Source: Pyrodictium delaneyi (GTDB lineage Archaea > Thermoproteota > Thermoprotei_A > Sulfolobales > Pyrodictiaceae). From it: a stretch of DNA of 32,000 nt. This document shows, piece by piece, positions 1 through 18,452 of this stretch. The notes beneath the pieces were generated by a model that ran no database searches, was not told where the DNA came from, and worked only from the letters and a program-made list of their open reading frames with translations. Each line of letters starts with the position of its first letter. Within the stretch, counting starts at the first letter, position 1. The DNA lies in NCBI RefSeq assembly GCF_001412615.1, contig NZ_CP013011.1:300001-332000 (forward strand), written 5' to 3'. The position numbers and the translations under genes were made by a program.

Positions 1-402
1 CTTTTTCTCCTTTGCAGCTACTAGGAATCCCCCTACATCCTCGATAACACAGTTTTTTACAACATATTCTTCAACTTGTGCAGCATTTTCAAAAACTGCG
101 TACTCTTTCTTATCATATTTCCTGAACACTTCTTCATTGCTGTGCTTGAGAAATATTCCCTGGCTGCATGCGTTGCAGACGGGTATGTTTCTCTGCTTTG
201 CTATCTCTGCTAGGAGCCGCTGGTAGTGGTGGGCGAGGCTCTCGCCGCTGATCACGGGTACGTAGCGGAGTACGAAGCCTTGGTCTGTGCGGAGTACTAC
301 GGGGGCGCGGCGGTGCCGGACGACGTTGCCCACGTTTTCGGCCATGTTTAGAGCTTCGAGGTTTACGAGTAAACGGGCTGAGAGCGAGAAGAAGACGGGC
401 AA
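1..402 (-). CDS. cas7: Cas7 (Csa2 family, type I-A backbone subunit), N-terminal 134 codons; gene runs off the left window edge
   Basis: Absent from the ORF track because it is truncated by the window. My minus-strand translation starts at TTG 402, with GGAGGTG 8 nt upstream. It reads LPVFFSLSARLLVNLEALNMAENVGNVVRHRRAPVVLRTDQGFVLRYVPVISGESLAHHYQRLLAEIAKQRNIPVCNACSQG...VIEDVGGFLVAAKEKK. The blocks HRxAPVV, RYVPVISGExLAHxYQ and DVGGF are the N-terminal signature of Csa2-type Cas7 as I recall it from Sulfolobus Csa2. The gene lies directly downstream of a csa5-sized gene. Confidence 0.85.
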   Translation of the reverse strand, partial: MPVFFSLSARLLVNLEALNMAENVGNVVRHRRAPVVLRTDQGFVLRYVPVISGESLAHHYQRLLAEIAKQRNIPVCNACSQGIFLKHSNEEVFRKYDKKEYAVFENAAQVEEYVVKNCVIEDVGGFLVAAKEKK

Positions 403-427
403 GAGGGTTCCACCTCCTCTCGGGGGG

Positions 428-754
428 TTATCTCCCGAGTGCGAGGAGTGCAGCAGTGCGGGCTAAGCGAAGTCCCTCTTCGGCCCTACGGGGGTCTAGG
501 AGGAGCTCTGCTATCTTTTCAACCTCGTACTTAGCCTTTTCAACTACTTCCTTTGCGTTGCTGGGGCAGTCCTCTCCCCGGTCTCCGCTTAGACAGCTAC
601 TGCGGAATATGCGGAGTGCATCGTAGAGAGCAGCTAGGGCTTGGTCAGGGCCTAGCGCGTTAGCTATACGGTCAAGTACGCCGAAGCGCCGGGTCCTGGC
701 GAAGAAGGAGAGTAGCTCCGGTAGCCTGTAGAGCCGGAGCTGTTGCTCCTGCAA
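428..754 (-). CDS. csa5: probable Csa5 (type I-A small subunit, Cas11-like)
   Basis: 108-aa ORF with a TTG start, ending 25 nt upstream of the cas7 start on the same strand. Size, helical/charged composition and position immediately 5' of csa2/cas7 fit the csa5-cas7-cas5 order of type I-A operons. No motif-level identification is possible by eye. Confidence 0.5.
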   Translation of the reverse strand: MQEQQLRLYRLPELLSFFARTRRFGVLDRIANALGPDQALAALYDALRIFRSSCLSGDRGEDCPSNAKEVVEKAKYEVEKIAELLLDPRRAEEGLRLARTAALLALGR

Positions 755-1131
755 GATCCGCCGCCGCTTTATACAGAGTTCTTGTAGACAGACTTAAGTG
801 TTGCTGATATAGCGTTCACGGCACCGTGGAGGAGGCTATCATCTCCATCTACTTAACTCCCTGAAGGATTTAGACGACGTTGAAGCTGTCGGGTGAGCAC
901 AGCACTCTGGCACTTGTAGCTAGTACATGGTCCTCCCTGACAAGTTCTGTATAATTCAGTTTTGCTTCTACTTGGCGCTCCTCGGTAAGGTCTTACGTCA
1001 ACCGTGTAGTTGACAGTACAAGTCTATCCAGCCAGCCTCGCCAGCATTCTCTGTTTACACTGCCATGAACGTGATGCCTGGCCGGAGGCCGTTGCATTAT
1101 TAGGTTGCTGCGCTGGGCGCGTGTCTAGTCT

Positions 1132-1806
1132 TTGGGAGTTACAGTGGAGCGGCAACGTCTGGTTGTTGCGACGCTGGGTTTCGACGAGAGGTTTGCATTG
1201 AGGGCCCTCACTGAGCACCGTCCTGACCGGCTGTATGCTCTAGCTCTCTATACGGATGAGTCTTCGTGGAGCCGGGTGAGTAGGGCTTTCTCCCAGCTGA
1301 GACTGTTTGCGGAACAGCTCGGCGTCGGGGCAGAGCTTGTCCGGATAGACTATCGTGGTGAAAGAATTTCCGTGCTTGCTGGCCGCCTTAAGGCCCTGCT
1401 AGAGAGTTACGCGGAGAGCTCTGGTGAGCTTGTGTTGGCGCTTACCGGGGGGCCGCGGCTTCTCGTGGTGGCTGCCCTTGTGGCTGCATTGTCTCTGCCG
1501 GAGAGACTCGTGGAGAGGATGGTGCTCCGGCTGGAGGGTGAGGGCTTCGACGTCGTTGCCGAGGAACAGTTGGCGAACCTCCGGTATGTCGAGCTCGACC
1601 CGACTGCCCGGAGGGTGTTGGGGCTCCTTGTCGAGGTTCGCCGGGAGGGCCGCTGGGTGGGCCCTACCGAGGTCTCGGAGAGGCTTGGGATACCAAAGTC
1701 TACGGCGTATAAGAAGCTCCAGGAGCTAGTGGCGCGTGGGCTCGCGGAGTATGACCAGCGGAGCCGCCGCTACACGGCGACAGAGAGGGCGTATGTGAAC
1801 GCCTAA
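1132..1806 (+). CDS. csa3: Csa3-type CRISPR-locus transcriptional regulator (CARF-like N-domain + C-terminal winged HTH)
   Basis: 224 aa. The N-terminal VVATLGFDERFALRAL and the later LALTGGPRLLVVAAL occupy the two CARF signature positions typical of Csa3. The C-terminal GPTEVSERLGIPKSTAYKKLQELVARGLAE is a clear HTH. The gene is divergent from the csa5-cas7 operon. Confidence 0.85.
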   Translation: MGVTVERQRLVVATLGFDERFALRALTEHRPDRLYALALYTDESSWSRVSRAFSQLRLFAEQLGVGAELVRIDYRGERISVLAGRLKALLESYAESSGELVLALTGGPRLLVVAALVAALSLPERLVERMVLRLEGEGFDVVAEEQLANLRYVELDPTARRVLGLLVEVRREGRWVGPTEVSERLGIPKSTAYKKLQELVARGLAEYDQRSRRYTATERAYVNA

Positions 1807-2482
1807 ACGGTTCTCTGAATAGTTTTCTGGATCGCATTACGCCTCTTCGCCGGCTATGCTTAGCTATTGAGGCTAGTGCTGCTAGGACTTGGAGCGAGAG
1901 TACGAGCTTCTTAGCCTCCACGACCCCCTGTACCAGAGGGTAATGGTGGCAAGGTCTCTGGCCTTGTTATTACTGTGAGTTCGCCCTACTTCGCCACGTA
2001 TGTGTATACTTCTCCCTGGTTGATCGCGCTTGCTCACCGGCGTACCAGAATCATAGTCTTCTCCTTCCCGTCTAGGAGTTTTAGGAACTCGTCTGGCTCT
2101 ACGACGAGGAAGCAGTATGCGTATGTGCCTGCACGGGCAGTCACCGGGGCTCCCGTAATTGTGGAGCTAGTGTAGACCACCATAATTTACACCACAGCTA
2201 TTCGGTAATAGAGTACTGCTGATTTTTATTATCTCTATGTAACGCTTCTTGAGCCCTAGTGAGGGCTATAGCGTGGCGCTACTTGTCCCTTGTAGACGGC
2301 TTATGAGGATGCTCAGTTGCCGAGCCTAGCCTGGCGCCGGCAGGAGCTGTTGTGCTCCTTGTCCGGTGAATAACTCACTATGTGCTGGTCTAGCCTTGTT
2401 ATAGCTCCTTTGCATGGTTACAGCGCATAGTAATGATATTTATAGCTCTGTCTACGAAGTTGTGTATACTGGTGACCGTTTA

Positions 2483-2707
2483 TTGAGCACTGTAATCTCT
2501 GTGAGGGTTCCGCGTAGGCTCCGGGAGGAGCTGGAGAGACTTGGCATCGACTATGCTGAGGAGATTAGGAGGTTTCTCGAGCGGAGGATCCGGGAGGAGA
2601 AGGCTAAGAGGATACGCGAGAGGCTAGCCAGGCTTAGGAGCAGGATCGGCAGCGTCGAGGGAAACGTTGCTGCGGAGCTTATCCGCGAGGACCGGGAGCA
2701 GCGATGA
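2483..2707 (+). CDS. vapB: VapB-like antitoxin (ribbon-helix-helix type)
   Basis: The ORF is open from 2414 (ATG), but TTTATA at 2439-2444 predicts a transcription start near 2466-2468, so TTG 2483 (or GTG 2462) is the more likely start. ISVRVPRRLREELERLGIDYAEEIRRFLERRI reads as beta-strand, helix, helix (RHH). The stop overlaps the vapC start (ATGA at 2704). Confidence 0.7.
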   Translation: MSTVISVRVPRRLREELERLGIDYAEEIRRFLERRIREEKAKRIRERLARLRSRIGSVEGNVAAELIREDREQR

Positions 2708-3144
2708 CGCGGTTCATAGTCGTGGATGCGAGCATTCTCGTTAAGTGGTTCGTACCAGAGGAGTTTAGTGACAGGGCAGAGGCCATTCTTAACGACCACC
2801 TAGACGCCAGGGTTGCGGTAGCTGCGCCATCTTACGCGCTGCTAGAGCTTGCTAACGCTCTGAGAAAGTACGTCGCAAGAGGGGTCATGGGTCCCCGAGA
2901 GGCTGGAGAAGCTTTCAGCCTCCTACTCGAAATGGACATAGAGTTTAGGGAGATGGATGAGGAGCTTGCAAGGGAGGCTCTAGGCTATGCTCTCGACAAT
3001 GGAGTTACTGTGTATGATGCCTACTACATTGTTCTCGCGAAGAGGCTTGGTACGGTCTTCTACACGGCTGACGGGAAACTGCTAAGACAGCTGAGGGGAC
3101 GAGAACACATAGTCAGGCACGTCTCTGAGTACAAGCCGCCATAG
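2704..3144 (+). CDS. vapC: VapC toxin, PIN-domain ribonuclease
   Basis: 146 aa. The four PIN acidic positions are readable: VVDAS, LLELAN, VYDAYY, YTADGK. It has a 4-nt overlap with the upstream antitoxin gene. Confidence 0.85.
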   Translation: MTRFIVVDASILVKWFVPEEFSDRAEAILNDHLDARVAVAAPSYALLELANALRKYVARGVMGPREAGEAFSLLLEMDIEFREMDEELAREALGYALDNGVTVYDAYYIVLAKRLGTVFYTADGKLLRQLRGREHIVRHVSEYKPP

Positions 3145-3201
3145 AACCGGTGCACGGCATAGAGCCTAGGCGCGCTTGGACATGGCGGCATTTTCGACGT
3201 G

Positions 3202-3843
3202 CTATGCCTGAATGCTCGGGCATACGCCTCTGTAGCTACAGGCCCGGCAGCGGCTTCTCCGTGGCCTAGTCCATGGCGTGATTCCGGTCTCCAGTATCCT
3301 CCATAGTTCTCTGGCTGCTTCTTCTACTAGTCTGCGGTGCCTAGGGGTTATCCGAACCTCTATCAGCCTGGCCGCCTCCGTGGCGTAGACTAGGGTTTTC
3401 TCGCTTGGCATTGCTAGGGTCTCCTCGGCCGCTATCGTGTAGGCTGCTAGCTGGGCTAGGATGTGCTGTGCCCGGCTATAGAGGCTCCTCCTAGAGACGC
3501 TGAGCTTTGCCTCAACTACTACCAGGGTCTCTCTCGGTGTGACTGCTACGAGGTCTACCCGGCCTACTAGGCCGAGGCGCCGGCTCTGGACAGGCTGCTC
3601 CCATAGAAGCTCCTGAACCTCTATTCTGGCTTCTTCTAGCCTCTCTACCAGCTCCGCCCGTTGCTCGCCAGTGAGGCCTCCCGACTGCATGCTCTGCGTT
3701 GGGCGCTCACTCCAGAGGAGCAACTTGTGGTACGCTATCATTGGACACCAGTAATACTCCTTCACCAGGGTTATTGGGAGGAGCCTCTCCTCGTCCACAA
3801 TGCTATACGACTGTGACTTGGCGTGCTGCACGGCCAGGGTCAC
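3202..3843 (-). CDS. cas4: Cas4 (RecB-like PD-(D/E)xK nuclease with 4-Cys cluster)
   Basis: 213 aa. It has the N-terminal Cys ([11 protein letters not shown]), a nuclease core (GRVDLV ... VVVEAKLS), the QxxxY motif (AQLAAY) and the C-terminal [10 protein letters not shown]. It is co-directional with and overlaps cas2. Confidence 0.85.
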
Positions 3844-4103
3844 CCATAACCTGGCCAGCTACCAGCATGCGGCGAACGTAGTCGTCCGGGACGACCACGG
3901 CTACAACGCTGTCCGTAGCGCGGTCTATGATGCGCTGAGCTGCCCGTATCGCCTCCTTGGCCTTGGTCTGGCCGCCGCGGCCTATGAAGACGCTCCGTTG
4001 CACCCGTGTCATACCTAGGGCTTCTAGGAGCTTTGCCATGCGCTGGCGGCGGTTGTCGTCGCTTATGTCGTAGAAGACTACTACGTAGGGCGCGACCCCA
4101 CAC
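3803..4103 (-). CDS. cas2: Cas2, with an N-terminal start/frameshift problem (canonical-start ORF is only 3803..4039)
   Basis: The track ORF is [20 protein letters not shown]... (78 aa). The same frame read upstream gives ...[19 protein letters not shown], the conserved Cas2 beta1 with catalytic Asp. That frame has no ATG/GTG/TTG before the in-frame TAG at 4109-4111. GTG at 4103-4101 is out of frame by one base across a G4 run (plus-strand CCCC 4096-4099). Confidence 0.8.
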
Positions 4104-4227
4104 CCCCGCTAGGTATTACCTGGTATTACTTTGCAGAGGTTATTGATAAACAATTCTATCATAAAGCAGCCACGGTACTACTTATCACTAGAGCCTCCAT
4201 CTAGTAGTAATACTAGGCGCTGCCGGG
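4104..4227. promoter_or_regulatory. divergent cas2-cas4 / csa1-cas1 control region with repeated GGTATTAC motif
   Basis: AT-rich 124-bp gap between divergent starts. It has a tandem 10-mer GGTATTACCT/GGTATTACTT at 4112-4131, an inverted GTAATAC at 4207-4213 inside the palindrome CTAGTAgtaaTACTAG (4201-4216), and TATA-like TCATAAAG around 4159-4166. Confidence 0.4.
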
Positions 4228-5046
4228 TTGGTGCTGCCCCGCCGCGTCTGGGACTACATAAGGAGCCTAGGCAGCGAGGGAGCAGCCTACGCCGAGATAC
4301 GGGGCTGGCGCTTCGACTATGTTGCACCCCGCTACCGTTACCGGCCTAGCGTCAGCGAAGTAGCGAGCTACTGCCCCAGCCGCCGCGACATATACCTCCG
4401 CCGGGTAGTAGGGGTGAAGCCTCCGCGCAGCCAGCAGGCTGTCTACGGGATGCTCGTCCACGAGTTCTTCCTAGAGCCTTTTAGGCTCGTGGACCGCGGT
4501 GTCACCGACGTGGAGGAGCTTGCGGCTGCGCGGCGCCAGCTAGCCCGCCGGCTCGGTGTCCGGCCGGACCGGTTTCTCCTCCGGGTCTACAGCCTCGGCG
4601 CCGCGCTAGCCCTCCAGTCCCTAGTAGAGGGCGGGGTCCCGGTCCGTGTCGAGCCCCAGCTCCCCGGGGCGCCTGTAGGCCTAAGCGACATGGTGAAGCC
4701 TGACCTCCTCGTGGGCTTCATCCCGGTCGAGGTGACTACGGCGGATCCCTATAGCACATATGGCGGAAGGAAGGAGCTACAGCTCGCTGGCTATGCTCTA
4801 GCCCTTGAGGCGTGGACAGGGTTCCCCGTAGACTATGGGGTTGCCGTCTACATCCGGCGGCGCGAGAGCGGCGATCCCTTTCCCGAGTGGCGTGTCGTAC
4901 CGATAGATGATGGTCTGAGGCGTAGCTTCCTACGCGCCCGCGACGAGGCGGCGATGATTGTTGAGAACGGGGTAGACCCGGGCCCAGCAGGAGACGGGTG
5001 CCCCGCATGGTGCCCCTTCCGCGGCACAGTCCAGGGCTGCTCCTAG
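4228..5046 (+). CDS. csa1: Csa1 (Cas4-like RecB-family nuclease of type I-A adaptation modules)
   Basis: 272 aa with TTG/GTG start. It has an N-terminal Cys motif (SYCPSRRDIYL), a nuclease core (VKPDLLV ... IPVEVTT), the QxxxY motif (LQLAGYALALE) and a C-terminal Cys cluster (CPAWCPFRGTVQGC). It lies immediately upstream of cas1, as in Sulfolobus-type I-A loci. Confidence 0.75.
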   Translation: MVLPRRVWDYIRSLGSEGAAYAEIRGWRFDYVAPRYRYRPSVSEVASYCPSRRDIYLRRVVGVKPPRSQQAVYGMLVHEFFLEPFRLVDRGVTDVEELAAARRQLARRLGVRPDRFLLRVYSLGAALALQSLVEGGVPVRVEPQLPGAPVGLSDMVKPDLLVGFIPVEVTTADPYSTYGGRKELQLAGYALALEAWTGFPVDYGVAVYIRRRESGDPFPEWRVVPIDDGLRRSFLRARDEAAMIVENGVDPGPAGDGCPAWCPFRGTVQGCS

Positions 5047-5062
5047 CGTAGGGTACACGGGG

Positions 5063-6064
5063 GTGTCCATCCTGGAGAACGTACTAATAGTCTCGACCCC
5101 AGGGTCGCGTATATACGTCCGGCACGGCGTTGTCTACATCCAAGCCCCTGACTCCAAGCCCATACCCGTCACCTTTGACACGGAGCTCCTCGTACTCGCT
5201 ACGGGCGGCGTATCGATATCGGGGCGTGCCCTCCGCCGCCTCTCGGAGCTGGGTGTACGCCTAGTCGTCCTCGGCCAGAGGGGCCAGGTAGCGGGCGAGC
5301 TGCGGCCCGTGGATAGGGTTAACCGGACCATAGAGAGCCGGCTGGCCCAGTACCGAGTCAAGCTCGAGGGCCGGGGCCTAGCCTACGCTGCCGAGATGGT
5401 GTACGCGAAGATAGTGAACCAGGCCAGGCTCCTACGATACCTCGCCAAGAGCCGGCGAGAGCCCTGGCTCCGCGACGACGGCTATGCGGTAGAGGAGTAC
5501 GCGGCTCGGCTACGCAGCACCCTAGACGAGGGGCGCCGGCTAGACGAGAACCTCGTAAGAGGCCTCGAGGCACAGGCTGCCCGCCGCTACTGGTCAGCCC
5601 TAGCGGCGCTGATACCCTGGGACACAGGGTTCCGGGGCCGCGACCCACGGGGCGAGGACCCGGTGAACAAGGCGCTCAGCTACAGCTACGCGATACTCTA
5701 CAGCGTGGCCAGCGACGCGCTCACCGTGGCGGGCCTGGACCCCTACGCGGGGTTCCTCCACCGCGACCGGAGCGGGAAGCCGAGCCTCGTCTACGACTAC
5801 AGCGACACGTTCAAGCCAATCGCGGTAGATAAGGCGCTCTTCACTAACATCGACCAGCAGCTATTCGAGCTATACCAGGGCAGCCTCACCTACACAGCAC
5901 GCCGCGAGCTAGCCAGGAGGGTGCTCGAGAACCTAGCATCGCCCTACACGGACGCAGCAGGCAAGAGGAGGAGGCTCCGAGACCATATATACGGCTACGC
6001 GTGGAGTCTAGCACAGAGTCTCCGCGAGAACCGCCGATACCAGGCCTTCCGGGCCCGGCTTTAG
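5063..6064 (+). CDS. cas1: Cas1 integrase
   Basis: 333 aa. It starts with a typical Cas1 N-terminus (LIVSTPGSRIYVRHGVVYIQ). Catalytic-region blocks are present: LEAQAARRYW, DPVNKALSYSYAILY, GLDPYAGFLHRDRSGKPSLVYDYSDTFKP. Confidence 0.95.
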   Translation: MSILENVLIVSTPGSRIYVRHGVVYIQAPDSKPIPVTFDTELLVLATGGVSISGRALRRLSELGVRLVVLGQRGQVAGELRPVDRVNRTIESRLAQYRVKLEGRGLAYAAEMVYAKIVNQARLLRYLAKSRREPWLRDDGYAVEEYAARLRSTLDEGRRLDENLVRGLEAQAARRYWSALAALIPWDTGFRGRDPRGEDPVNKALSYSYAILYSVASDALTVAGLDPYAGFLHRDRSGKPSLVYDYSDTFKPIAVDKALFTNIDQQLFELYQGSLTYTARRELARRVLENLASPYTDAAGKRRRLRDHIYGYAWSLAQSLRENRRYQAFRARL

Positions 6065-6081
6065 CAGAGCGTGGCCGGGGT

Positions 6082-7197
6082 ATGAGCTGGACACTCCTAG
6101 CCCTCGTAGGAGCTGACAAGCTAGAGATACACGCCCTAGCCTCGAGCATAGCCCGGGTCTACGAGGACTACCCGGTAGAGAGCCTCGTAGTAGCCAGTTC
6201 AGAGCGGCTATGGAGCCGGAAGAAGCTCGAAGAAACCGTCCAGGCTATATTGGGAGAGTTGGGCATAAGCCTCCAAGCCAGAGCTGTGACGGTGTCTAGT
6301 TGGCTTACACGGCGGGAGGGCAGAGAGGCTACCGCATCAGAGGAGATCCACCAGATACTCCGCTCCACGGCGGCAAAAGGCTGCACCGTAGTCACAGCCA
6401 CACCTGCGAGCCGCCGGCTAGCAATGGAGGCCGGTATCGCAGTAGGCCGCGCCATAGCCCGGGGTCTCTGCGTGGAGACAACGTTCCTGGACTTCCTCTG
6501 GGGCCAGTGGCGGGGCCTACCCTACCCCTATGTACCCCGTGTAGTCGAGCCGCTAACAGTCATACCACCCCGCTATCGTCCCCTAGACTGGCACGGCCGC
6601 AATACAGCCGATAAGACGCCGAGCCTGACTGGTAGAGGCTGCAGAGACCGCATAGCAGGCAAGTTGCCTCCTCTCCGTTGTCTAGTCGCAGAGCTAGCTA
6701 GAAGGATAAATGCTGCCACAGGGCCGGGGCCCCTAATAGCTGAAGACACCAGGGAAGAATGGCCCAAAGACGGCTGCGGCAGGCTCGAGGCAATTACAGA
6801 GCCCGGGGGCCAGAGCCGAAGAATCGTAATCCGCGATACATGTAGCCTCGGAGACTGGCAAGAAGCCGCAAGAGACCTCCGAGCAATGCTACGCGATCTC
6901 GCCGAGTACTTCGTCACAAAGGATGGCCGGAAACCTCTTGACCAGCTACCAGCATTCACCGGGCTAGAGCATCTGACGATAACAGGGAGACGCCTCTCCG
7001 AGCTAGCAGCACCTGTGCTTGCAGATACAAACCTCATCTACGCTGGACTCCACAATGAAGCCTTTCTGGATACTCATATACTGGCTCCCATATTGTGTAG
7101 TATTAGAAGTAACCAGAAGGTACGCAGAGCACTCCAAGAAACATGTCAACCCCGCAGAGACATTCATGGATACACTAGCTTATACAGCTATAAGTGA
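6082..7197 (+). CDS. CRISPR-associated candidate, upstream ORF: CARF-like Rossmann N-domain, ending in the first strand of a PIN-like domain
   Basis: The track ORF opens at 6001 inside cas1; ATG 6082 (MSWTLLALVGADK) is the sensible start. TLLALVG and VVTATPASRRLAMEAG sit where CARF domains carry their signatures. The C-terminal PVLADTNLIYAGLHNE reads as PIN beta1. The last ~35 codons (ILCSIRSNQK...) look like out-of-frame read-through. Confidence 0.55.
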   Translation: MSWTLLALVGADKLEIHALASSIARVYEDYPVESLVVASSERLWSRKKLEETVQAILGELGISLQARAVTVSSWLTRREGREATASEEIHQILRSTAAKGCTVVTATPASRRLAMEAGIAVGRAIARGLCVETTFLDFLWGQWRGLPYPYVPRVVEPLTVIPPRYRPLDWHGRNTADKTPSLTGRGCRDRIAGKLPPLRCLVAELARRINAATGPGPLIAEDTREEWPKDGCGRLEAITEPGGQSRRIVIRDTCSLGDWQEAARDLRAMLRDLAEYFVTKDGRKPLDQLPAFTGLEHLTITGRRLSELAAPVLADTNLIYAGLHNEAFLDTHILAPILCSIRSNQKVRRALQETCQPRRDIHGYTSLYSYK

Positions 7198-7567
7198 GCT
7201 GAAGACTGCAGGCGCATCGCTAATCCCTTCACACCACTATATGTGTGATATAGCAATACCTCTTATAGACCCTCTACTTCTAAACGGCACAATACTAGCT
7301 ACCCGTGATGCCGGAGCACACCAACTATGGAGCCAACATCCAGCTACATCAAAGATAGCAAAGCCAGTACTTGTAGCCACAAGTAGCCTAGCCAGCGAGG
7401 AACCAGGTGAACCCGTCTACGCAGTACTACAGACACTAGTTGCGCTAAAGACCCTAGAGAAGCTCCTACCCAATAAAGAGTTCAGAGTCAAGCTGGTAGC
7501 CAAAAGAGACAGCAAAGAAACACATATAGACATTCCAGCCCTAAACCTAAATACAAAGCATCCATAA
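7019..7567 (+). CDS. CRISPR-associated candidate, downstream ORF: remainder of the PIN-like domain (probably the same gene as 6082..7197, offset by +1)
   Basis: Frame-2 ORF overlapping the previous one. From about 7090 it reads PYCVVLEVTRRYAEHSKK ... MCDIAIPLIDPLLLNGTILATRDAGAHQLW, which supplies the E, D and D of a PIN acidic set. Host-like CTA/ATA codon usage continues to the stop at 7567. Confidence 0.5.
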   Translation: MQIQTSSTLDSTMKPFWILIYWLPYCVVLEVTRRYAEHSKKHVNPAETFMDTLAYTAISELKTAGASLIPSHHYMCDIAIPLIDPLLLNGTILATRDAGAHQLWSQHPATSKIAKPVLVATSSLASEEPGEPVYAVLQTLVALKTLEKLLPNKEFRVKLVAKRDSKETHIDIPALNLNTKHP

Positions 7568-7845
7568 CCGAGCCTAATGTAGAAACACCCTCAACCTAGC
7601 ATAGGCATGCTCTATGAGTAAAAGCATTAGACACAAACATTATCATATAAGAATCATAAAAAGAGCCATTAAAGAGCGCCGTGAGGAGTTCAACAAGCTC
7701 CACGAGTACGACATGAAAGCAGAAACTGCTAGGCCGGTCTGGCCTTCTGTATCCCTGCCGGCCACTTATAGACGTTTAATTCCAGACATAATAATATCTC
7801 TGTTTACATTATTAATCACAAGTCTAGACTCCCTAAGCTTGTAAT

Positions 7846-10800
7846 CTTAGTAATTCTCCGTTGAGTCAAGCTTTCGTCGTTGTTGAGACTACATCTGGCA
7901 CGGCAGCATTGCATTACAATTCTCTTTTGAGTTATGCTTGACGCGTATGTTGGTGAACTCCACCTCGCGGCACGAGAACCACGCTTACAATTCTCTTTTG
8001 AGTTATGCATGCCGATGGTGCGTACGGCACGCTGAGCGCATGCTACGTGACACCTTACAATTCTCTTTTGAGTTATGCCGGTACTTTGCGAATATCCTGC
8101 CGGCTATTAGCGCGGCGCGTCTTACAATTCTCTTTTGAGTTATGCTCCCGGGCCTGAAACCGTGGCCGGGCGCCCTGCCTGTGCTGAGCTTACAATTCTC
8201 TTTTGAGTTATGCGTGCCCCTGTTCTAGCGTCTAGCCCACACATTTCTTCGGCTTACAATTCTCTTTTGAGTTATGCATACTTGGCTACGGCTGTTAGGT
8301 CTAGACTCTGTGCCCGCTCTGTTACTTACAATTCTCTTTTGAGTTATGCATACGTCGATGAGATAGAGATACCCGGCGGCACGTCAACATCGACCTTACA
8401 ATTCTCTTTTGAGTTATGCACCCCGGGGGCATTGTTTGCAGCGAGAAATCCAGAAACTCTATAGAGCTTACAATTCTCTTTTGAGTTATGCCAACGAGCA
8501 GACTGGCACCCTCAGCGCAGTGGCTTTCATAGTCTACATCTTACAATTCTCTTTTGAGTTATGCCTCCGCCAGCCGCCCCGAGGCAGCGAGGTATGTTAG
8601 CGCTTACAATTCTCTTTTGAGTTATGCACAGACCAAAGACAAGTACCAGTACAACGTAGACCCCATGACCTTACAATTCTCTTTTGAGTTATGCCGAAGT
8701 ATATCCACTTCATAGACACGGAGACCGGAGAGAAATTCACTTACAATTCTCTTTTGAGTTATGCGTGAGCAGGGAGCTCAGCGTCACGGGAGCACACTAT
8801 CTCGACACACTTACAATTCTCTTTTGAGTTATGCACTGCATAGAGGCGTGCGACAAGGACTGTGCAGAAGAACACACTTACAATTCTCTTTTGAGTTATG
8901 CCCGCATAAGGAACGTGGCTCCCTATGCTGCGAAGGCTGCTAGGCTTACAATTCTCTTTTGAGTTATGCCAGTATTTTACTTGGCTTAAAGAAGCATTAG
9001 AAGAGAGAAAGACTTACAATTCTCTTTTGAGTTATGCTTGTTATCTTTAGGTGTATGTTGTGGCCGGGCTCTAGGACCATGCCTTACAATTCTCTTTTGA
9101 GTTATGCTGGTGCAGGCCGTGGCTGCTAGCTTGTTGCTGGCTTGTTCTTTAGCTTACAATTCTCTTTTGAGTTATGCTAGAGAAGGCTGTATCAGACATA
9201 GCCCGCTTCTGCGCCGCCACCTTACAATTCTCTTTTGAGTTATGCAGCATAGATCTTGGCGTCGTGTAGTGGCGCCGCGAGCTTCAACTTACAATTCTCT
9301 TTTGAGTTATGCATATACATCATCGACACGGCTAAGCCCCCGCTACAACGAGACTTACAATTCTCTTTTGAGTTATGCAAGAAGATGGTCTACTACCTCG
9401 GTAGGCGCTACGGGGTGTGTCAGTCTTACAATTCTCTTTTGAGTTATGCCATTTCTTAGAGACGCACAAGTTTGCAATAGCGAAGTAACCTTACAATTCT
9501 CTTTTGAGTTATGCAGAAACAAGACAGTGTGCTGGAAGTACGTGGATTGCAATGGAGTCATCTTACAATTCTCTTTTGAGTTATGCACCACACATTGCCT
9601 CCTCTGGCATTTATTTCTAGCAGGGTGCCTTACAATTCTCTTTTGAGTTATGCCGCTATCGTGATGCCGCCGTCCATGGCCTTCCTGGCTATTATCCGCT
9701 TACAATTCTCTTTTGAGTTATGCCTCGCGCGCGCCATGGGCTTCGCGCTGGCCGGCGGCACGCTGCTAGCTTACAATTCTCTTTTGAGTTATGCCAGCCG
9801 AGCAGGCCCAGGTCATGCAGGCAGTCAGGCGGGCGCAGACTTACAATTCTCTTTTGAGTTATGCCCGCCCATGAAGCCCACGCCGGCCATCGGCGCCAGG
9901 CTGGGCGGGAACTTACAATTCTCTTTTGAGTTATGCCTCGCGGTAGGCTCGTATGCCCCAGCGGGCGATGAAGTAGCCGACTTACAATTCTCTTTTGAGT
10001 TATGCACATGAGAGTACTGCCAAGCTTGTCAGCGAGTTGTTAGGAATCGCTTACAATTCTCTTTTGAGTTATGCAACCGAAATGCTTACAGTTGCATGGA
10101 TAGTCCCGGCATCCGTTATCTTACAATTCTCTTTTGAGTTATGCTTGTGGCCCCTTTGCAGCATCCATACCAGCAGCTCCTCAACTTACAATTCTCTTTT
10201 GAGTTATGCATATCCCTTTGGAGGATTAACTCCGGCAGAAATAGGATAGGAAAAACTTACAATTCTCTTTTGAGTTATGCGGCTCCGGGATGTCTGGGCT
10301 AAGGCTGCTGAGCGGTTGGCTTACAATTCTCTTTTGAGTTATGCATGCTGAATTCGGATAGATTCAGCACTCATGACTTGTGCAGAATCTCTTACAATTC
10401 TCTTTTGAGTTATGCATAGTCGGGGCAGCTAACCAAACCATTCTCACCTCACTTTAAACTTACAATTCTCTTTTGAGTTATGCAGGTGTATGTCCCCGGT
10501 GGCACTAGCACATCGACCGGTAACACACTTACAATTCTCTTTTGAGTTATGCCGCATCGGTCTCCGCCGGAATAGCGGCGGACGCGGTAATGCTATCTTA
10601 CAATTCTCTTTTGAGTTATGCCGGTATCATGTGTCTCATCGAACCATACACGTACGGTGCCACCTTACAATTCTCTTTTGAGTTATGCAAGAACCCCAAC
10701 CTGCTGGCCTTCATCCCGAGCGCTGCCCCGACTTACAATTCTCTTTTGAGTTATGCGGGCCTTCACCCAGGGGGTTCCCCGGCCCGGCTACTCCCCTTAC

Positions 10801-11362
10801 AATTCTCTTTTGAGTTATGCGCAGAGTCACTCATTGAGAGCGCTACTGCTGGCGAGGAGACTTACAATTCTCTTTTGAGTTATGCCGGTGGATGCTAGCC
10901 CGCTGGTCTGCTATCTCTCGGATGAAGATCTTACAATTCTCTTTTGAGTTATGCCATGGCTCCCACTCCCGCTGCGCCGTCTGAGCGTGTTTACTTACAA
11001 TTCTCTTTTGAGTTATGCACACCGATTAGATGCTTGCAGAAGAAGCACTTAGCCAGCTTACAATTCTCTTTTGAGTTATGCCTTTATGCTGTCGAGCTCT
11101 ATCGCCTCATCCGCTACCGTGTTGCTGCTTACAATTCTCTTTTGAGTTATGCAGGAATGCAGCCATGAGCACTCGGCCCGGGGGACCTTGCACTCCCTTA
11201 CAATTCTCTTTTGAGTTATGCCAAAACCACCACCTCCATAAACCTTGCATACGCTCTGGCGAGACGACTTACAATTCTCTTTTGAGTTATGCTTCTCTCG
11301 GTAGAGTCACCTGGTCTACTTCTGCTTCTAGGGTCCTCTTACAATTCTCTTTTGAGTTATGC
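7846..11362 (-). CRISPR. CRISPR array: 51 canonical 25-nt repeats plus 1 decayed terminal repeat, 51 spacers of 38-48 nt
   Basis: The plus-strand repeat is CTTACAATTCTCTTTTGAGTTATGC. First copies lie at 7913, 7984, 8054 and 8121, the last at 11338-11362; period is 63-72 nt. The 7913 copy has one mismatch (A for C), and a decayed copy CTTAGTAATTCTCCGTTGAGTCAAGC lies at 7846-7871. The reverse complement GCATAACTCAAAAGAGAATTGTAAG resembles crenarchaeal type I-A repeats ending ATTGAAAG, so I place the transcribed strand on minus. All spacers looked unique by eye. Confidence 0.97.
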
Positions 11363-11815: not shown

Positions 11816-12355
11816 GTGGTTGCAACATCTATAAGACTTAGTGAGGGTGAACTCCGAATAGGTGAAGGCAATGAGCGGTACATACTGATACCTATGAGGG
11901 CCTACGCAGAAATTGTCGCATCGTTCTTTGACCTAGTGGGTGTTGCGGCAGGTGGACCTCTTTACTATCTGGGTAAGAGGATAGGACACGGACTTGTTGA
12001 AGAGCTTGAGAATAGGCTACGCGAGGGTGTAACTAGGCGGGAACTCACAGATGTCATAATGGTTGTTGCTAAGCTTTTTGAAGAGCTGGGCTTTGGCACT
12101 ATAGAGGTTAATGCTGTCGACAAGACTAGGATTATTTTGAAAATGAAGAATCCTCCTAGCCTGGCTGGTACAAGGTATGTCCAGGGTATCTTTGACAAGC
12201 TCAAGTCTAGTAATATGCATGTATGCTACCTTGAGGCTGGTATGATTGCTGGGAGTTTGGAGAAGATTCTTGGAAAGCGGTTTAGAGCGAGGGAGGTGGA
12301 GAGCAAAATAGATGGTGACTCCATGTACTGTTTTATAGAAGTTACAGAGGTATAA
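11816..12355 (+). CDS. V4R-domain protein (4-vinyl-reductase-like small-molecule-binding domain)
   Basis: 179 aa, GTG start preceded by GAGGTGGTGAT. The pattern ILIPMRAYAEI ... GGPLYYLGKRIGHGL ... ELGFGTIEV ... HVCYLEAGMIAGSLEKILG ... E..IDGDSMYCFIEV matches the V4R layout, including the C...G...G and C-F-I-E C-terminal signature. Confidence 0.7.
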   Translation: MVATSIRLSEGELRIGEGNERYILIPMRAYAEIVASFFDLVGVAAGGPLYYLGKRIGHGLVEELENRLREGVTRRELTDVIMVVAKLFEELGFGTIEVNAVDKTRIILKMKNPPSLAGTRYVQGIFDKLKSSNMHVCYLEAGMIAGSLEKILGKRFRAREVESKIDGDSMYCFIEVTEV

Positions 12356-12558
12356 GCATGGTTTGAGTTCCCGGATGAAATCCTTATTACGTTTACCATT
12401 TTTATCGATATCCAAATCGTTAAAACTATCATTTAGATCTAAAAATTAAGTTTCTGCAAGCCCGAAGTGTGACAGTAGCCCTGCTGACAGGAGTGTATGG
12501 GTGGCTTGGTTGCAGTTACACTAGGGGTCAAGGCAGGATAGTTCTGAGGTGAAAACAC

Positions 12559-14433
12559 GTGAGGAGAGAGTCCTACAACTATATTAACTATGTTATCTCT
12601 GTGGGCTTGATACTGCTTGGTGCTTCCGCATTCGCTGCTAGCACTATACTGCGTGTCCCCTCCTATACCCCGTTGCATAGTGCTAGTGATCTACGTCACT
12701 CTGTGCTGGCTATCCTGGAGGATGGGTTGGATCCAGTAAGTCTCGCAGTAATCGCGTCGACTACCGGCTTAGCTCTATTGTCAGTGGGGCTCCTTATTGC
12801 TGCCTATCTAAACTACTCTGCTGTAAGCCTTGTATGCGGGTTGTCCATAATGCTCCTCCTATCGGCGGCTATCCTAAGCTGGGATACACTCGTCCTTGAC
12901 TATGCTTGGATCGTTAACCCAGCGATATACATTATTATCGGGATAGGAGTCTCCTCTGTCGTGGAGTCCGTCGCTGCCGGCGTACCCCTCACTGTGCTGG
13001 GCCTATTGCTGCTAGTGGGCGGGCTTGTGGAGCACGGTTTCGTGTACGAGCCGCTACTGACGGGTAGTGCTGCCCGGCTCGCGGGGATGCTCTCGGGCGG
13101 TATTCCCGTGGCTGGCTTCATGGCGCTTACTGTGCTACTCGTACTAGCCTCGGGTGTCCAGCCAGAGCACCCGCCGATGCTCCCCAGTGAGCCCCTGCCA
13201 GCGAGCTCCGCGCGCACACGGGTCGAGGAGCAGCCGGCGGCGACCCGCCAGCGAGGAGGGCTGGGCGGCGAGAATGCTGTCGTTGATGCAGTTGTGTCTG
13301 GGATTGGGGGCTCTAGGGGGCAGCAGGGCGCCAGGAGAGTGTGTCCGCGTCTCTCGGAGTGGCCTCGGCTCCTCGCCTCTGAGCCGGGAAGGGTGGAGGA
13401 GTGCTGGCTCGGCAGGGAGGTCTACGGGTACCGGGTCGAGGCTGTCATTGGCCGTGGTGGCTTCGGCCTGGTGCTCCGGGCCCGGGAGAAGTACACCGGG
13501 GAGCCGGCGGCGGTGAAGGTTATCCTCCCGGCGCCTGTCGAGGCTGATGGCTCTACTGTGACGCGTACTGCGCTGGAGCTTGTCTACGAGCTGGAGAGGG
13601 AGTCTTCTAGCCTCCGGGAGCTGAGCCGCAGGAGCCGCTACATAGTAGCCCTCAAGGCCGTGCACATTGACGCTGAGAAGTTCCGGCTAGCCGTGGCGCG
13701 GGACGACCCGGGGATCTACCTGGAGAGCCCACCGGCCCTGATAATGGAGTACATGGCTGGCGGCGACCTGAAGAAGCTCCTAGACCGGGCCATAGCCGCT
13801 AACGGCGCGGATACGCTACGCCGTAGCAGGGACTGGGCCCGGGCAGCCTCGGCGATACTAGCGGCCGCCGCGGAGGCGCTGGCGGCGATACACGCTGGGG
13901 GCTACATCCACGGCGACGTCAAGCCCCAGAACATACTCTTCACTGAGCAGCCGCCCGCGTCCCCCAGCGTGCTCGCCCGGGGCCTGGCCTCGGCGCTCCG
14001 GGGCGGACCCGGCCCTCTACCCAAGCTCTCCGACCTGGGCAGTGCCACGAGGATAGGAGAGCCAGTGCAGAATATCACCCCGCTCTACGCGGCACCGGAG
14101 CTGCTACTCTACGATGCGCTGTGCCAGGACCCGGAGACTCGCCGGAGCAACCAGAGGTGTCTAGAGCCGCCCCGGGCAGACCCGAGCCTCGACGTATACT
14201 CGCTCGGTGTGGTGGCGCTTCAGCTCCTAGCCGCCCTGGGCCGCGGAGAGCTAGAGGCGTGGAGAAGGAGCGGCGTACTCGACTCGCCCCAGAGTACGCG
14301 GCAGCTCTTAGAGAGGCTCGGCGTCGAGGGGGAGACAGCGGACTTCATAGCCCGTATGCTCTCCCCGGAGCCCGGGGAGAGGCCGAGCGCAGATGAGGTT
14401 GTCCGGTTCTTCCGCGGGAGGGCGGGGCTCTAG
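12559..14433 (+). CDS. membrane-anchored eukaryotic-like Ser/Thr protein kinase
   Basis: 624 aa. The N-terminal ~200 aa contain about six hydrophobic helices. Kinase motifs are present: GRGGFGLV (G-loop), AAVKV (Lys), YIHGDVKPQNILF (catalytic loop, HGD instead of HRD), LSDLGSA (DLG instead of DFG), YAAPELL (APE). Confidence 0.85.
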   Translation: MRRESYNYINYVISVGLILLGASAFAASTILRVPSYTPLHSASDLRHSVLAILEDGLDPVSLAVIASTTGLALLSVGLLIAAYLNYSAVSLVCGLSIMLLLSAAILSWDTLVLDYAWIVNPAIYIIIGIGVSSVVESVAAGVPLTVLGLLLLVGGLVEHGFVYEPLLTGSAARLAGMLSGGIPVAGFMALTVLLVLASGVQPEHPPMLPSEPLPASSARTRVEEQPAATRQRGGLGGENAVVDAVVSGIGGSRGQQGARRVCPRLSEWPRLLASEPGRVEECWLGREVYGYRVEAVIGRGGFGLVLRAREKYTGEPAAVKVILPAPVEADGSTVTRTALELVYELERESSSLRELSRRSRYIVALKAVHIDAEKFRLAVARDDPGIYLESPPALIMEYMAGGDLKKLLDRAIAANGADTLRRSRDWARAASAILAAAAEALAAIHAGGYIHGDVKPQNILFTEQPPASPSVLARGLASALRGGPGPLPKLSDLGSATRIGEPVQNITPLYAAPELLLYDALCQDPETRRSNQRCLEPPRADPSLDVYSLGVVALQLLAALGRGELEAWRRSGVLDSPQSTRQLLERLGVEGETADFIARMLSPEPGERPSADEVVRFFRGRAGL

Positions 14434-17150: not shown

Positions 17151-18296
17151 CTACTCTACCAACCGGAACTTCTTCAACGCCTCAGCCACATCATGCGGCC
17201 TCGTATCCCACCGATTACGCCACGGATCAAACATCTCAACAGGCATAGGAACAGCACGCGAATACACAATAGTACTCTCCGAGAGAACCTTACCACTACA
17301 ATACTTCTCCAAGAACTTACCCAGAAGAGGCTTAATCTCACTATTAACTAGCAAGGCTGTGACAGCATATTCATTACCGGCAAATACTTGTGTACCCGTA
17401 AGAGTAGCAGCTGCAAATACATAAAGTTGCTCCGCGCATTCGCGACTAGTGATTACCATAATAGCTTCAATATCACCCTGAGTACCATGGAGGAAGCTGC
17501 CAATCCAAGTACGGCCGACATAACGAAGCTTACTCAATCTATCATAGTGATTTTTCATGAATCGGAAACGAAAGCTTATATCAGATGAAAATTTTTCGTT
17601 CAACTCTTCTACACGAGCTCGTGCGAGTAAGTTAACAGCACGTAGATCTATATTCTTAAGAAGCGGATAATACTCTATCATAGCTACAATTATCACATCA
17701 ATGAGTTTCATGCGTGAACCTATAGGGACAACATCAAGAACACTGTTATACATATCAGAATGAGCATCATACGTAAATCTAATACTCTCGAGATCTCTTG
17801 CAACAGCTTGTGTACAATTGTATACGGGAAGTGCACTACCATTATCAATTATAAATATTTTATCTTTAAATTTTTTCTCAAATTCGTGAACTAGATCTGA
17901 GACCAAGTCTTTAGGTAAACGATATGTAAACATTAGTCTACCGCCGAATAGTTTATTGATTGATATCAGATATCTATTATATGGCAAATCTAACCTAAAC
18001 CAGATATTCATGGTACGCTTATTCTCCACCTTGTCAAAGAAATCAATAATATCTCTAATACTTTTCGTTACTATCGTTACTGATTGTAAGTCTAATGCCC
18101 TATAATCTATTATGGCTATAGATTTTCTACGATGACGTGCTAACTCTTCCTTATCTATATTCCTTATCTTTCTCACTATGCTTCGCACATGCTGATCGCT
18201 TACACCTAAATGATCTGCTATTCGTTGTGCCTCCAGCCTGAAATCATAACAGGATAGAAGCGCTGCTATCTTGTCTAGGTCTTTGTGTATTTTCAA
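17151..18296 (-). CDS. low-GC hypothetical DNA-binding protein; N-terminal Lrp/AsnC-like HTH, possibly two tandem HTH+RAM-like modules
   Basis: 381-aa uninterrupted ORF in a strongly AT-rich block. DLDKIAALLSCYDFRLEAQRIADHLGVSDQHVRSIVRKI followed by IAIIDYRALDLQSVTIV resembles the Lrp/AsnC HTH-to-RAM transition. A second similar stretch is MKLIDVIIVAMIEYYPLLKN...MKNHYDRLSKLRYVGRTWIG...IEAIMVI. Confidence 0.55.
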   Translation of the reverse strand: MKIHKDLDKIAALLSCYDFRLEAQRIADHLGVSDQHVRSIVRKIRNIDKEELARHRRKSIAIIDYRALDLQSVTIVTKSIRDIIDFFDKVENKRTMNIWFRLDLPYNRYLISINKLFGGRLMFTYRLPKDLVSDLVHEFEKKFKDKIFIIDNGSALPVYNCTQAVARDLESIRFTYDAHSDMYNSVLDVVPIGSRMKLIDVIIVAMIEYYPLLKNIDLRAVNLLARARVEELNEKFSSDISFRFRFMKNHYDRLSKLRYVGRTWIGSFLHGTQGDIEAIMVITSRECAEQLYVFAAATLTGTQVFAGNEYAVTALLVNSEIKPLLGKFLEKYCSGKVLSESTIVYSRAVPMPVEMFDPWRNRWDTRPHDVAEALKKFRLVE

Positions 18297-18452
18297 GCCT
18301 CCCTACCTTCGGGCATTTTGCTCAACTTGCGTGCAAGGTAAACCAGTCCTCTCCCCCAGTATAGCTCTGGACAAAGCACAGAGGGTGAAAGAGAGATGCT
18401 CGCTCGCGAACCAGTGGATGTTCCTCTTCCAATATGGTAATGTAAGGGTCAA

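Follow-up and report, generated by a model that had tools for sequence, protein, structure and literature searches.

A CARF-PIN accessory gene of Pyrodictium delaneyi, very probably inactivated by a recent one-base insertion next to cas1

A stretch of 32,000 nucleotides (nt) from the archaeon Pyrodictium delaneyi (NCBI RefSeq assembly GCF_001412615.1, contig NZ_CP013011.1, positions 300,001 to 332,000 of the forward strand; referred to as the window and numbered from its first letter) carries two overlapping open reading frames (ORFs) between the adaptation gene cas1 and a CRISPR array. Most probably these are the remains of a single gene of the archaeal CARF_m3 'CARF-(HTH)-PIN' family of accessory effectors, HTH standing for helix-turn-helix, which was recently inactivated by the insertion of one G at 7083/7084. 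The P. delaneyi copy is thus a disrupted family member, and a continuous polypeptide bearing both CARF and PIN domains exists only in conceptual repair. A preliminary description, made from the DNA alone, had already proposed a CARF-PIN gene broken by a frameshift, while overrating its novelty: the family is real, encoded by single genes and already catalogued, and no new kind of system is involved.

Frame 1 is open over 6001/6082-7197, and translation from the ATG at 6082 yields a product of 371 amino acids (aa) identical to Pyrde_0316 (P0002) of P. delaneyi. The frame 2 ORF spans 7019-7567 (182 aa) and overlaps the first by 179 nt. Removal of one base merges both into a single protein of 494 aa, as translation confirmed. 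An internal ATG (MDTLAYTAISELK...) also starts a separately annotated 133-aa ORF at 7166-7567 (+), which is found in protein libraries as a stand-alone 'member' of the family (probably P0047) and is really the broken PIN tail.

The repaired protein matches the PADLOC profile PDLC01984, 'CARF_m3--CARF_PIN', with an E-value of 4.8e-87, residues 10-450 covering positions 10-402 of the 433 in the profile. Taken separately, ORF1 matches positions 10-306 and ORF2 positions 282-403 (E 1e-32), and because each matches a complementary part of the profile, the two ORFs are halves of one gene. The orthologue in H. butylicus, Hbut_1444 (P0004/P0125), shares 43% identity over 79% of the repaired protein (E 3.9e-77) and itself matches PDLC01984 with an E-value of 1.5e-195. 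Hbut_1444 was entered as "CARF_HTH_PIN" by Makarova et al. (2014, Front Genet 5:102, Suppl. Table 1; PMC4012209), together with Pyrfu_0473, APE_2119.1, Igni_0567, ST0035, Smar_1499, DKAM_0747, and Vdis_1148. Profile searching recovered 122 family clusters at 50% identity, mostly single proteins of 420-555 aa, with named members from Ignicoccus, Thermofilaceae, Stygiolobus, and Acidianus. Against Pfam and NCBIfam, neither the repaired protein nor 64 relatives gave more than weak noise. The window gene has the three-part architecture, the conserved motifs, the Thermoprotei range and the loose linkage to type I-A and III-B systems of the Hbut_1444 family, from which it differs in a 1-nt insertion that severs the PIN catalytic core and in its unusual position between cas1 and the leader of the array.

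The lesion was located by comparison with intact orthologues, which, close or distant, are single genes for 437-555 aa and not pairs with independent starts. P0001 (493 aa, 75% identity), P0004/P0125 (495/518 aa), and P0005 (530 aa) all cross the junction in one frame, as does the partial sequence P0003, and their junctions read ..VLPYC.., ..LLPYC.. or ..RLPYC... The closest relative, a Logan contig from SRR26701711 (L002), carries the gene of P0001, intact, at 2699-4180. Over 1.5 kb the two genes show 76% nucleotide identity and exactly two indels in the DNA alignment. The first is an in-frame difference of 3 nt at 6911-6913. The second, the sole indel that is not a triplet, is one extra G at 7083/7084 within CTGG, where the window reads ATACTGGCTCCCATA and L002 reads ATAGT-GCTCCCATA. 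The single-base +1 frameshift of the preliminary description is therefore borne out by the alignment, whereas its placement at a C of the CCC run at 7087-7089 is not, since the extra G lies 3-5 nt upstream of that run. Repair at the G gives the junction HILLPYCVV, in agreement with RILLPYC of H. butylicus; as read from the aligned sequences, the ancestral junction is HIL-LPYC, not HILAPYC.

In the disrupted gene, frame 1 encodes the CARF domain (residues 1-136, 6082..6489, +), the middle domain (residues 137-295, 6490..6966, +), and the beginning of the PIN domain (residues 296-334, 6967..7083, +), the last of these with strand beta1 (LADTN) and D315 at 7024-7026. Past the GG run with its extra base (7083..7084, +), the frame-1 translation continues into an out-of-frame tail of about 37 codons (7084..7197, +), which forms the end of Pyrde_0316 and stops at TGA 7195-7197. 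The remainder of the PIN domain and a C-terminal extension of a helix and a beta-hairpin (residues 335-494, 7085..7567, +) are found in frame 2 only, as supported by profile, model and conservation; this part encodes E342 (7106-7108), D389 (7247-7249), and D409 (7307-7309) and ends at the stop codon TAA 7565-7567.

Single-base indels in short homopolymers are typical of some sequencing platforms, and the gene might in that case be intact in the organism. The run concerned is of only two G, however, and window positions 1-8277 are 100% identical to contig NCQP01000006 (L001) of the separately sequenced P. delaneyi strain Hulk, frameshift and 371-aa ORF included. The Hulk assembly was obtained with Illumina MiSeq at 380x (PMC5556600). 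With the same sequence in that assembly, the frameshift is a genuine feature of the DNA, and an error of sequencing or assembly is highly improbable.

The lesion is also recent, since the part of the gene downstream of it is without decay. The 160 codons downstream of the shift contain no stop codon, and all positions conserved in at least 70% of the family are kept there. Lineage-specific changes at conserved sites number three in P. delaneyi and three in the intact sister. The ratio of nonsynonymous to synonymous substitution rates (dN/dS) against L002 is 0.13 downstream of the shift and 0.20 upstream. As a separate observation, the proportion of synonymous differences along the gene (window 6082-7567; L002 2699-4180) is very uneven, rising from 0.29 in the CARF domain through 0.50 in the middle domain to 0.75 or more in the PIN core, which suggests either a mosaic, recombinant history or a strong codon or structure constraint at the 5' end beside cas1.

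Domain assignments rest on an AlphaFold2 model of the repaired protein and on conservation counts from a 65-sequence family alignment. The model, which was built from that alignment, has a predicted local distance difference test score (pLDDT) of 93.3 and a predicted template modelling score of 0.94, and divides into a Rossmann-like domain of six beta-alpha units (1-136), a middle domain (137-295), and a C-terminal domain of alpha/beta type (296-494). The top Foldseek match in the PDB is entitled 'SiRe_0806 in complex with cA4' (9jxx/9jxw; E 1.8e-8, TM-score 0.45-0.55), cA4 being cyclic tetra-adenylate, followed by T. thermophilus Csm6, Can1, and Csa3, with probabilities of 0.77-1.0 for the CARF matches. 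Profile, model, and structure search thus agree on the CARF N-terminus that had been proposed by eye. Of the two signatures put forward for it, LALVGAD after beta1 pairs with LATLGSDKS of SiRe_0806, which binds cA4, and TATPASRRLA after beta4 pairs with DITPGRKYMA of the same protein. Across the family the loop after beta1 consists of small residues (G/S/T/A), and the motif after beta4 reads [ST]107-P-[GA]-S-R111, with S or T at its first position in 60 of the 65 sequences, S110 in 50, and R111 in 47.

The middle domain, labelled 'HTH' by Makarova et al. (PMC4012209), carries the most conserved motifs of the family, DFLWGxWxGLPYPYVPR and LPPLRCxVAELARRxN, in which W143, P149, and N210 are invariant among the 65 sequences. 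The C-terminal domain, when modelled alone (pLDDT 93.7), is an alpha/beta fold with parallel strands whose top Foldseek matches are PIN domains: 3ix7_A (E 4e-4), PINA 5f4h, Rrp44 5k36_K, Utp24 5oql_P, VapC PAE2754 1v8o, and SMG6 2hwx, with probabilities of 0.94-1.0. Both this result and the profile match bear out the proposed PIN C-terminus, and the suggested D-E-D-D set is conserved: D315, E342, and D409 are each present in all 65 sequences, and position 389 is always acidic (D in 55, E in 10). All four acidic residues are encoded in the window but divided between the two frames. The string RRYAEH at residues 345-350 has the form Rx4H and had been held to leave room for a HEPN/Csx1-like effector. 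This reading was rejected by conservation and fold and has a practically negligible likelihood, as H350 occurs in 2 of the 65 sequences (35 have Ala), R346 in 23, and the domain retrieves PIN rather than HEPN structures.

SiRe_0806 from Sulfolobus islandicus REY15A (PDB 9JXW, apo; 9JXX, with cA4) is the closest solved structure to the repaired protein. It was identified by searching the S. islandicus REY15A row of the Makarova supplementary alignment against the PDB, where all 417 of 417 residues are identical; its molecule name there is 'PIN domain-containing protein', and according to the PDB title it binds cA4. Searches of PDB sequences with phmmer and hmmsearch gave no match, and SiRe_0806 was reached only via structure and profile-profile comparison. 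In hhalign, the alignment of the present family against that of SiRe_0806 gives a 96% probability of homology over 391 columns and pairs SPGSR with TPGRK, DTNLVY with DTNVYI, Glu with Glu, CD with GD, and ATxD with ITAD. SiRe_0806 matches PADLOC PDLC01982 and, together with SSO1365 and Msed_1167, represents the sister family 'archaeal_CARF_PIN', also of the CARF_m3 type; at 417 aa it is the shorter protein, and it has neither of the middle-domain motifs DFLWGxW and LPPLRC. A literature search under the names SiRe_0806, 9JXX, and 9JXW turned up no open paper on its activity.

Other CARF proteins share part of this design. Csa3, a type I-A regulator consisting of a CARF domain and a winged HTH (window 1132-1806), has the CARF domain in common with the repaired protein (Foldseek probability 0.99-1.0 to 2wte/6wxq) and likewise resides in type I-A loci; at about 220 aa and without a nuclease domain, it is a transcription factor and not a toxin-type effector. 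Csm6/Csx1 (CARF-HEPN) and Can1/Can2 (CARF-PD-D/ExK) follow the same logic of CARF sensing coupled to a promiscuous nuclease, and their CARF domains superpose on that of the repaired protein. The effector is a PIN domain here, a HEPN domain in Csm6/Csx1, and a restriction-endonuclease fold in Can1/Can2.

We infer how the intact form may act from this architecture, from the structure of the homologue with cA4 bound, and from what is generally published on CARF proteins. The protein would form dimers through the CARF domain, and its ligand would be a cyclic oligoadenylate (cOA), most likely cA4, which the type III Cas10 complex would make upon detection of foreign RNA. Ligand binding would allosterically switch on the C-terminal PIN nuclease, in which D315, E342, D389, and D409 would hold the metal ions, and the activated nuclease would degrade RNA non-specifically and so slow or kill the infected cell. 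In P. delaneyi, translation is expected to end 37 codons past the shift and to leave a 371-aa fragment of the CARF and middle domains, whose nuclease would be dead because the product is cut inside the PIN fold with only the first of the four catalytic acids left.

The loss may reflect a loss of purpose, the effector having been orphaned without a Cas10 signal generator. In a published survey, P. delaneyi Su06 is listed under type I-A only, and H. butylicus, P. fumarii, and I. hospitalis under I-A plus III-B (PMC12195208, Table 1). The latter three keep the gene intact, and this distribution fits an orphaned cOA effector as the presumed reason for the loss. A tblastn search of low sensitivity with the Cmr proteins of another family locus (L026) detected type III genes neither in the window nor in the other loci.

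Several points weigh against the interpretation as a recently inactivated cOA effector. The ligand and the nuclease activity assigned to this exact subfamily are putative and are derived by the comparison set out above; the one relative examined, ST0035, showed weak cross-linking to cA4 and no induced RNase (PMC6546367). That P. delaneyi lacks type III systems is taken from one published table. Several intact members have no cas gene anywhere near them, so the family may serve in something other than CRISPR signalling. A perfect downstream frame would also be expected if that part were still translated.

The break might also be something other than simple decay, a quite unlikely reading that has two versions: the truncated protein could be kept as a nuclease-free sensor or regulator, of cOA or another nucleotide, at the leader and adaptation operon, or a low rate of +1 frameshifting at CCC-AUA could dose a toxic full-length effector. 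If true, either version would connect the adaptation module of a type I-A system with the sensing of a second messenger, in a genome that is reported as free of type III. In the first version the 371-aa product would sequester or sense cOA, or would regulate by binding DNA as Csa3 does, the frameshift having detoxified the protein. ORF1 does encode both the CARF and the middle domain in full, no invariant residue of either being lost, its start codon 18 nt past cas1 on the same strand would have it co-transcribed with csa1-cas1, and a stand-alone CARF-HTH protein, Csa3, is present in the same locus. However, the fragment ends inside the PIN fold, with beta1 and alpha1 only, and carries a 37-residue nonsense tail, a kind of ending that usually makes a protein unstable. 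Among the 122 clusters the gene is nowhere naturally split in two or truncated, fragments at contig ends excepted, and the truncation is too recent for selection on the 371-aa product to be assessed. A functional truncated product is therefore regarded as unlikely.

In the second version, the prolyl-tRNA would slip from CCC to CCA at 7087-7090 in a programmed +1 frameshift, producing a little full-length protein with the junction HILAPYC and keeping the level of a toxic nuclease low. In its favour, the sequence CCC-N is known to be prone to +1 slippage, and the frame past the shift stays fully open as far as the ancestral stop, with a dN/dS of 0.13 that resembles purifying selection. Programmed sites are conserved, though, and no orthologue has the shift, not even those of 75-90% identity. 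ATA, the zero-frame codon after CCC, accounts for 91 of 168 Ile codons here, more than any other, so that no slow codon is available to drive slippage. Recency explains the low dN/dS equally well, given that the locus does not differ between the two strains. Programmed frameshifting is accordingly considered very unlikely, and inactivation by the inserted G remains the preferred reading.

Upstream of the disrupted gene lie csa1 (4228-5046, +; Pfam Csa1, E 2.5e-52) and cas1 (5063-6064, +; Pfam Cas1, E 4.1e-57). The three genes share the same strand with gaps of 16-17 nt, and this is likely an operon context. Directly 3' of the CARF-PIN gene follow an AT-rich leader (7568-7912, +) and a CRISPR array of 51 repeats (CTTACAATTCTCTTTTGAGTTATGC; +) which extends from 7913 to approximately 11340, homology of the flank to Hulk resuming at 11338. 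The preliminary description considered a CARF effector unusual in a type I-A module. This does not hold for the family, as in the table of Makarova et al. (PMC4012209) a link to I-A is scored for ST0035 and for a Metallosphaera member, and type I-A cas genes are nearby at 8 of 18 metagenomic loci. The same table gives a III-B link for Vdis_1148. One member directly adjoins a Cmr (III-B) operon, and in H. butylicus, for which the context was taken from the alternative gene model P0125, and in two other long contigs, no cas genes occur within 10 kb of the family gene.

Further features of these loci were noted in passing. In L002, comparison of 2040-2432 with window 2825-5778 shows that most of vapC, cas4, cas2, csa1, and most of cas1 are deleted, and no CRISPR array is present within 1.2 kb downstream, yet the CARF-PIN gene is whole; in P. 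delaneyi the pattern is reversed. The window carries a VapB-like/VapC pair (PIN, Pfam E 2.4e-12) between csa3 and cas4 (2414-3144, +); further PIN/antitoxin pairs stand directly upstream of the H. butylicus CARF-PIN orthologue and less than 8 kb from another member (L025 9166-9805; L026 2252-2891). The array has 51 repeats in the window (7913-11340) against about 21 in the Hulk draft (L001 11832-13178); its leader-proximal end, up to 8277, is the same in both and the remainder differs, and the shorter Hulk array could result from internal deletion or from its collapse in the short-read assembly. Directly 3' of the array (11816-14433, +) are genes for a V4R-domain protein (179 aa) and then a 624-aa protein whose N-terminal half is long and hydrophobic and whose C-terminal half is a Ser/Thr protein kinase (Pkinase match in the Hulk copy, L001).

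Nearly all of the regional divergence between the two strains falls in a 381-aa ORF at 17151-18296 (-) without a Pfam match, which differs by about 21% at the DNA level between window and Hulk, especially at 17338-18338, with several indels, and whose flanks are more than 99% identical to Hulk. A recent transfer of the cas module, considered in view of the 100% identity between the strains, was rejected: the strains are near-identical throughout, and their 3.5% divergence stems from this one hypervariable gene.

As an ordinary, recently disabled gene, the locus is of limited importance in itself. It corrects the annotation, in that Pyrde_0316 and the following 133-aa ORF, entered as two 'hypothetical proteins', are one disrupted CARF-PIN accessory gene. 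It also offers a clean and datable case of the loss of a putatively cOA-responsive effector in a lineage with type I-A only according to the published survey. Finally, it ties a little-studied family of the Thermoprotei to the recently solved structure of SiRe_0806 with cA4, which may serve as a template for testing activation of the CARF_m3 PIN proteins by cA4.

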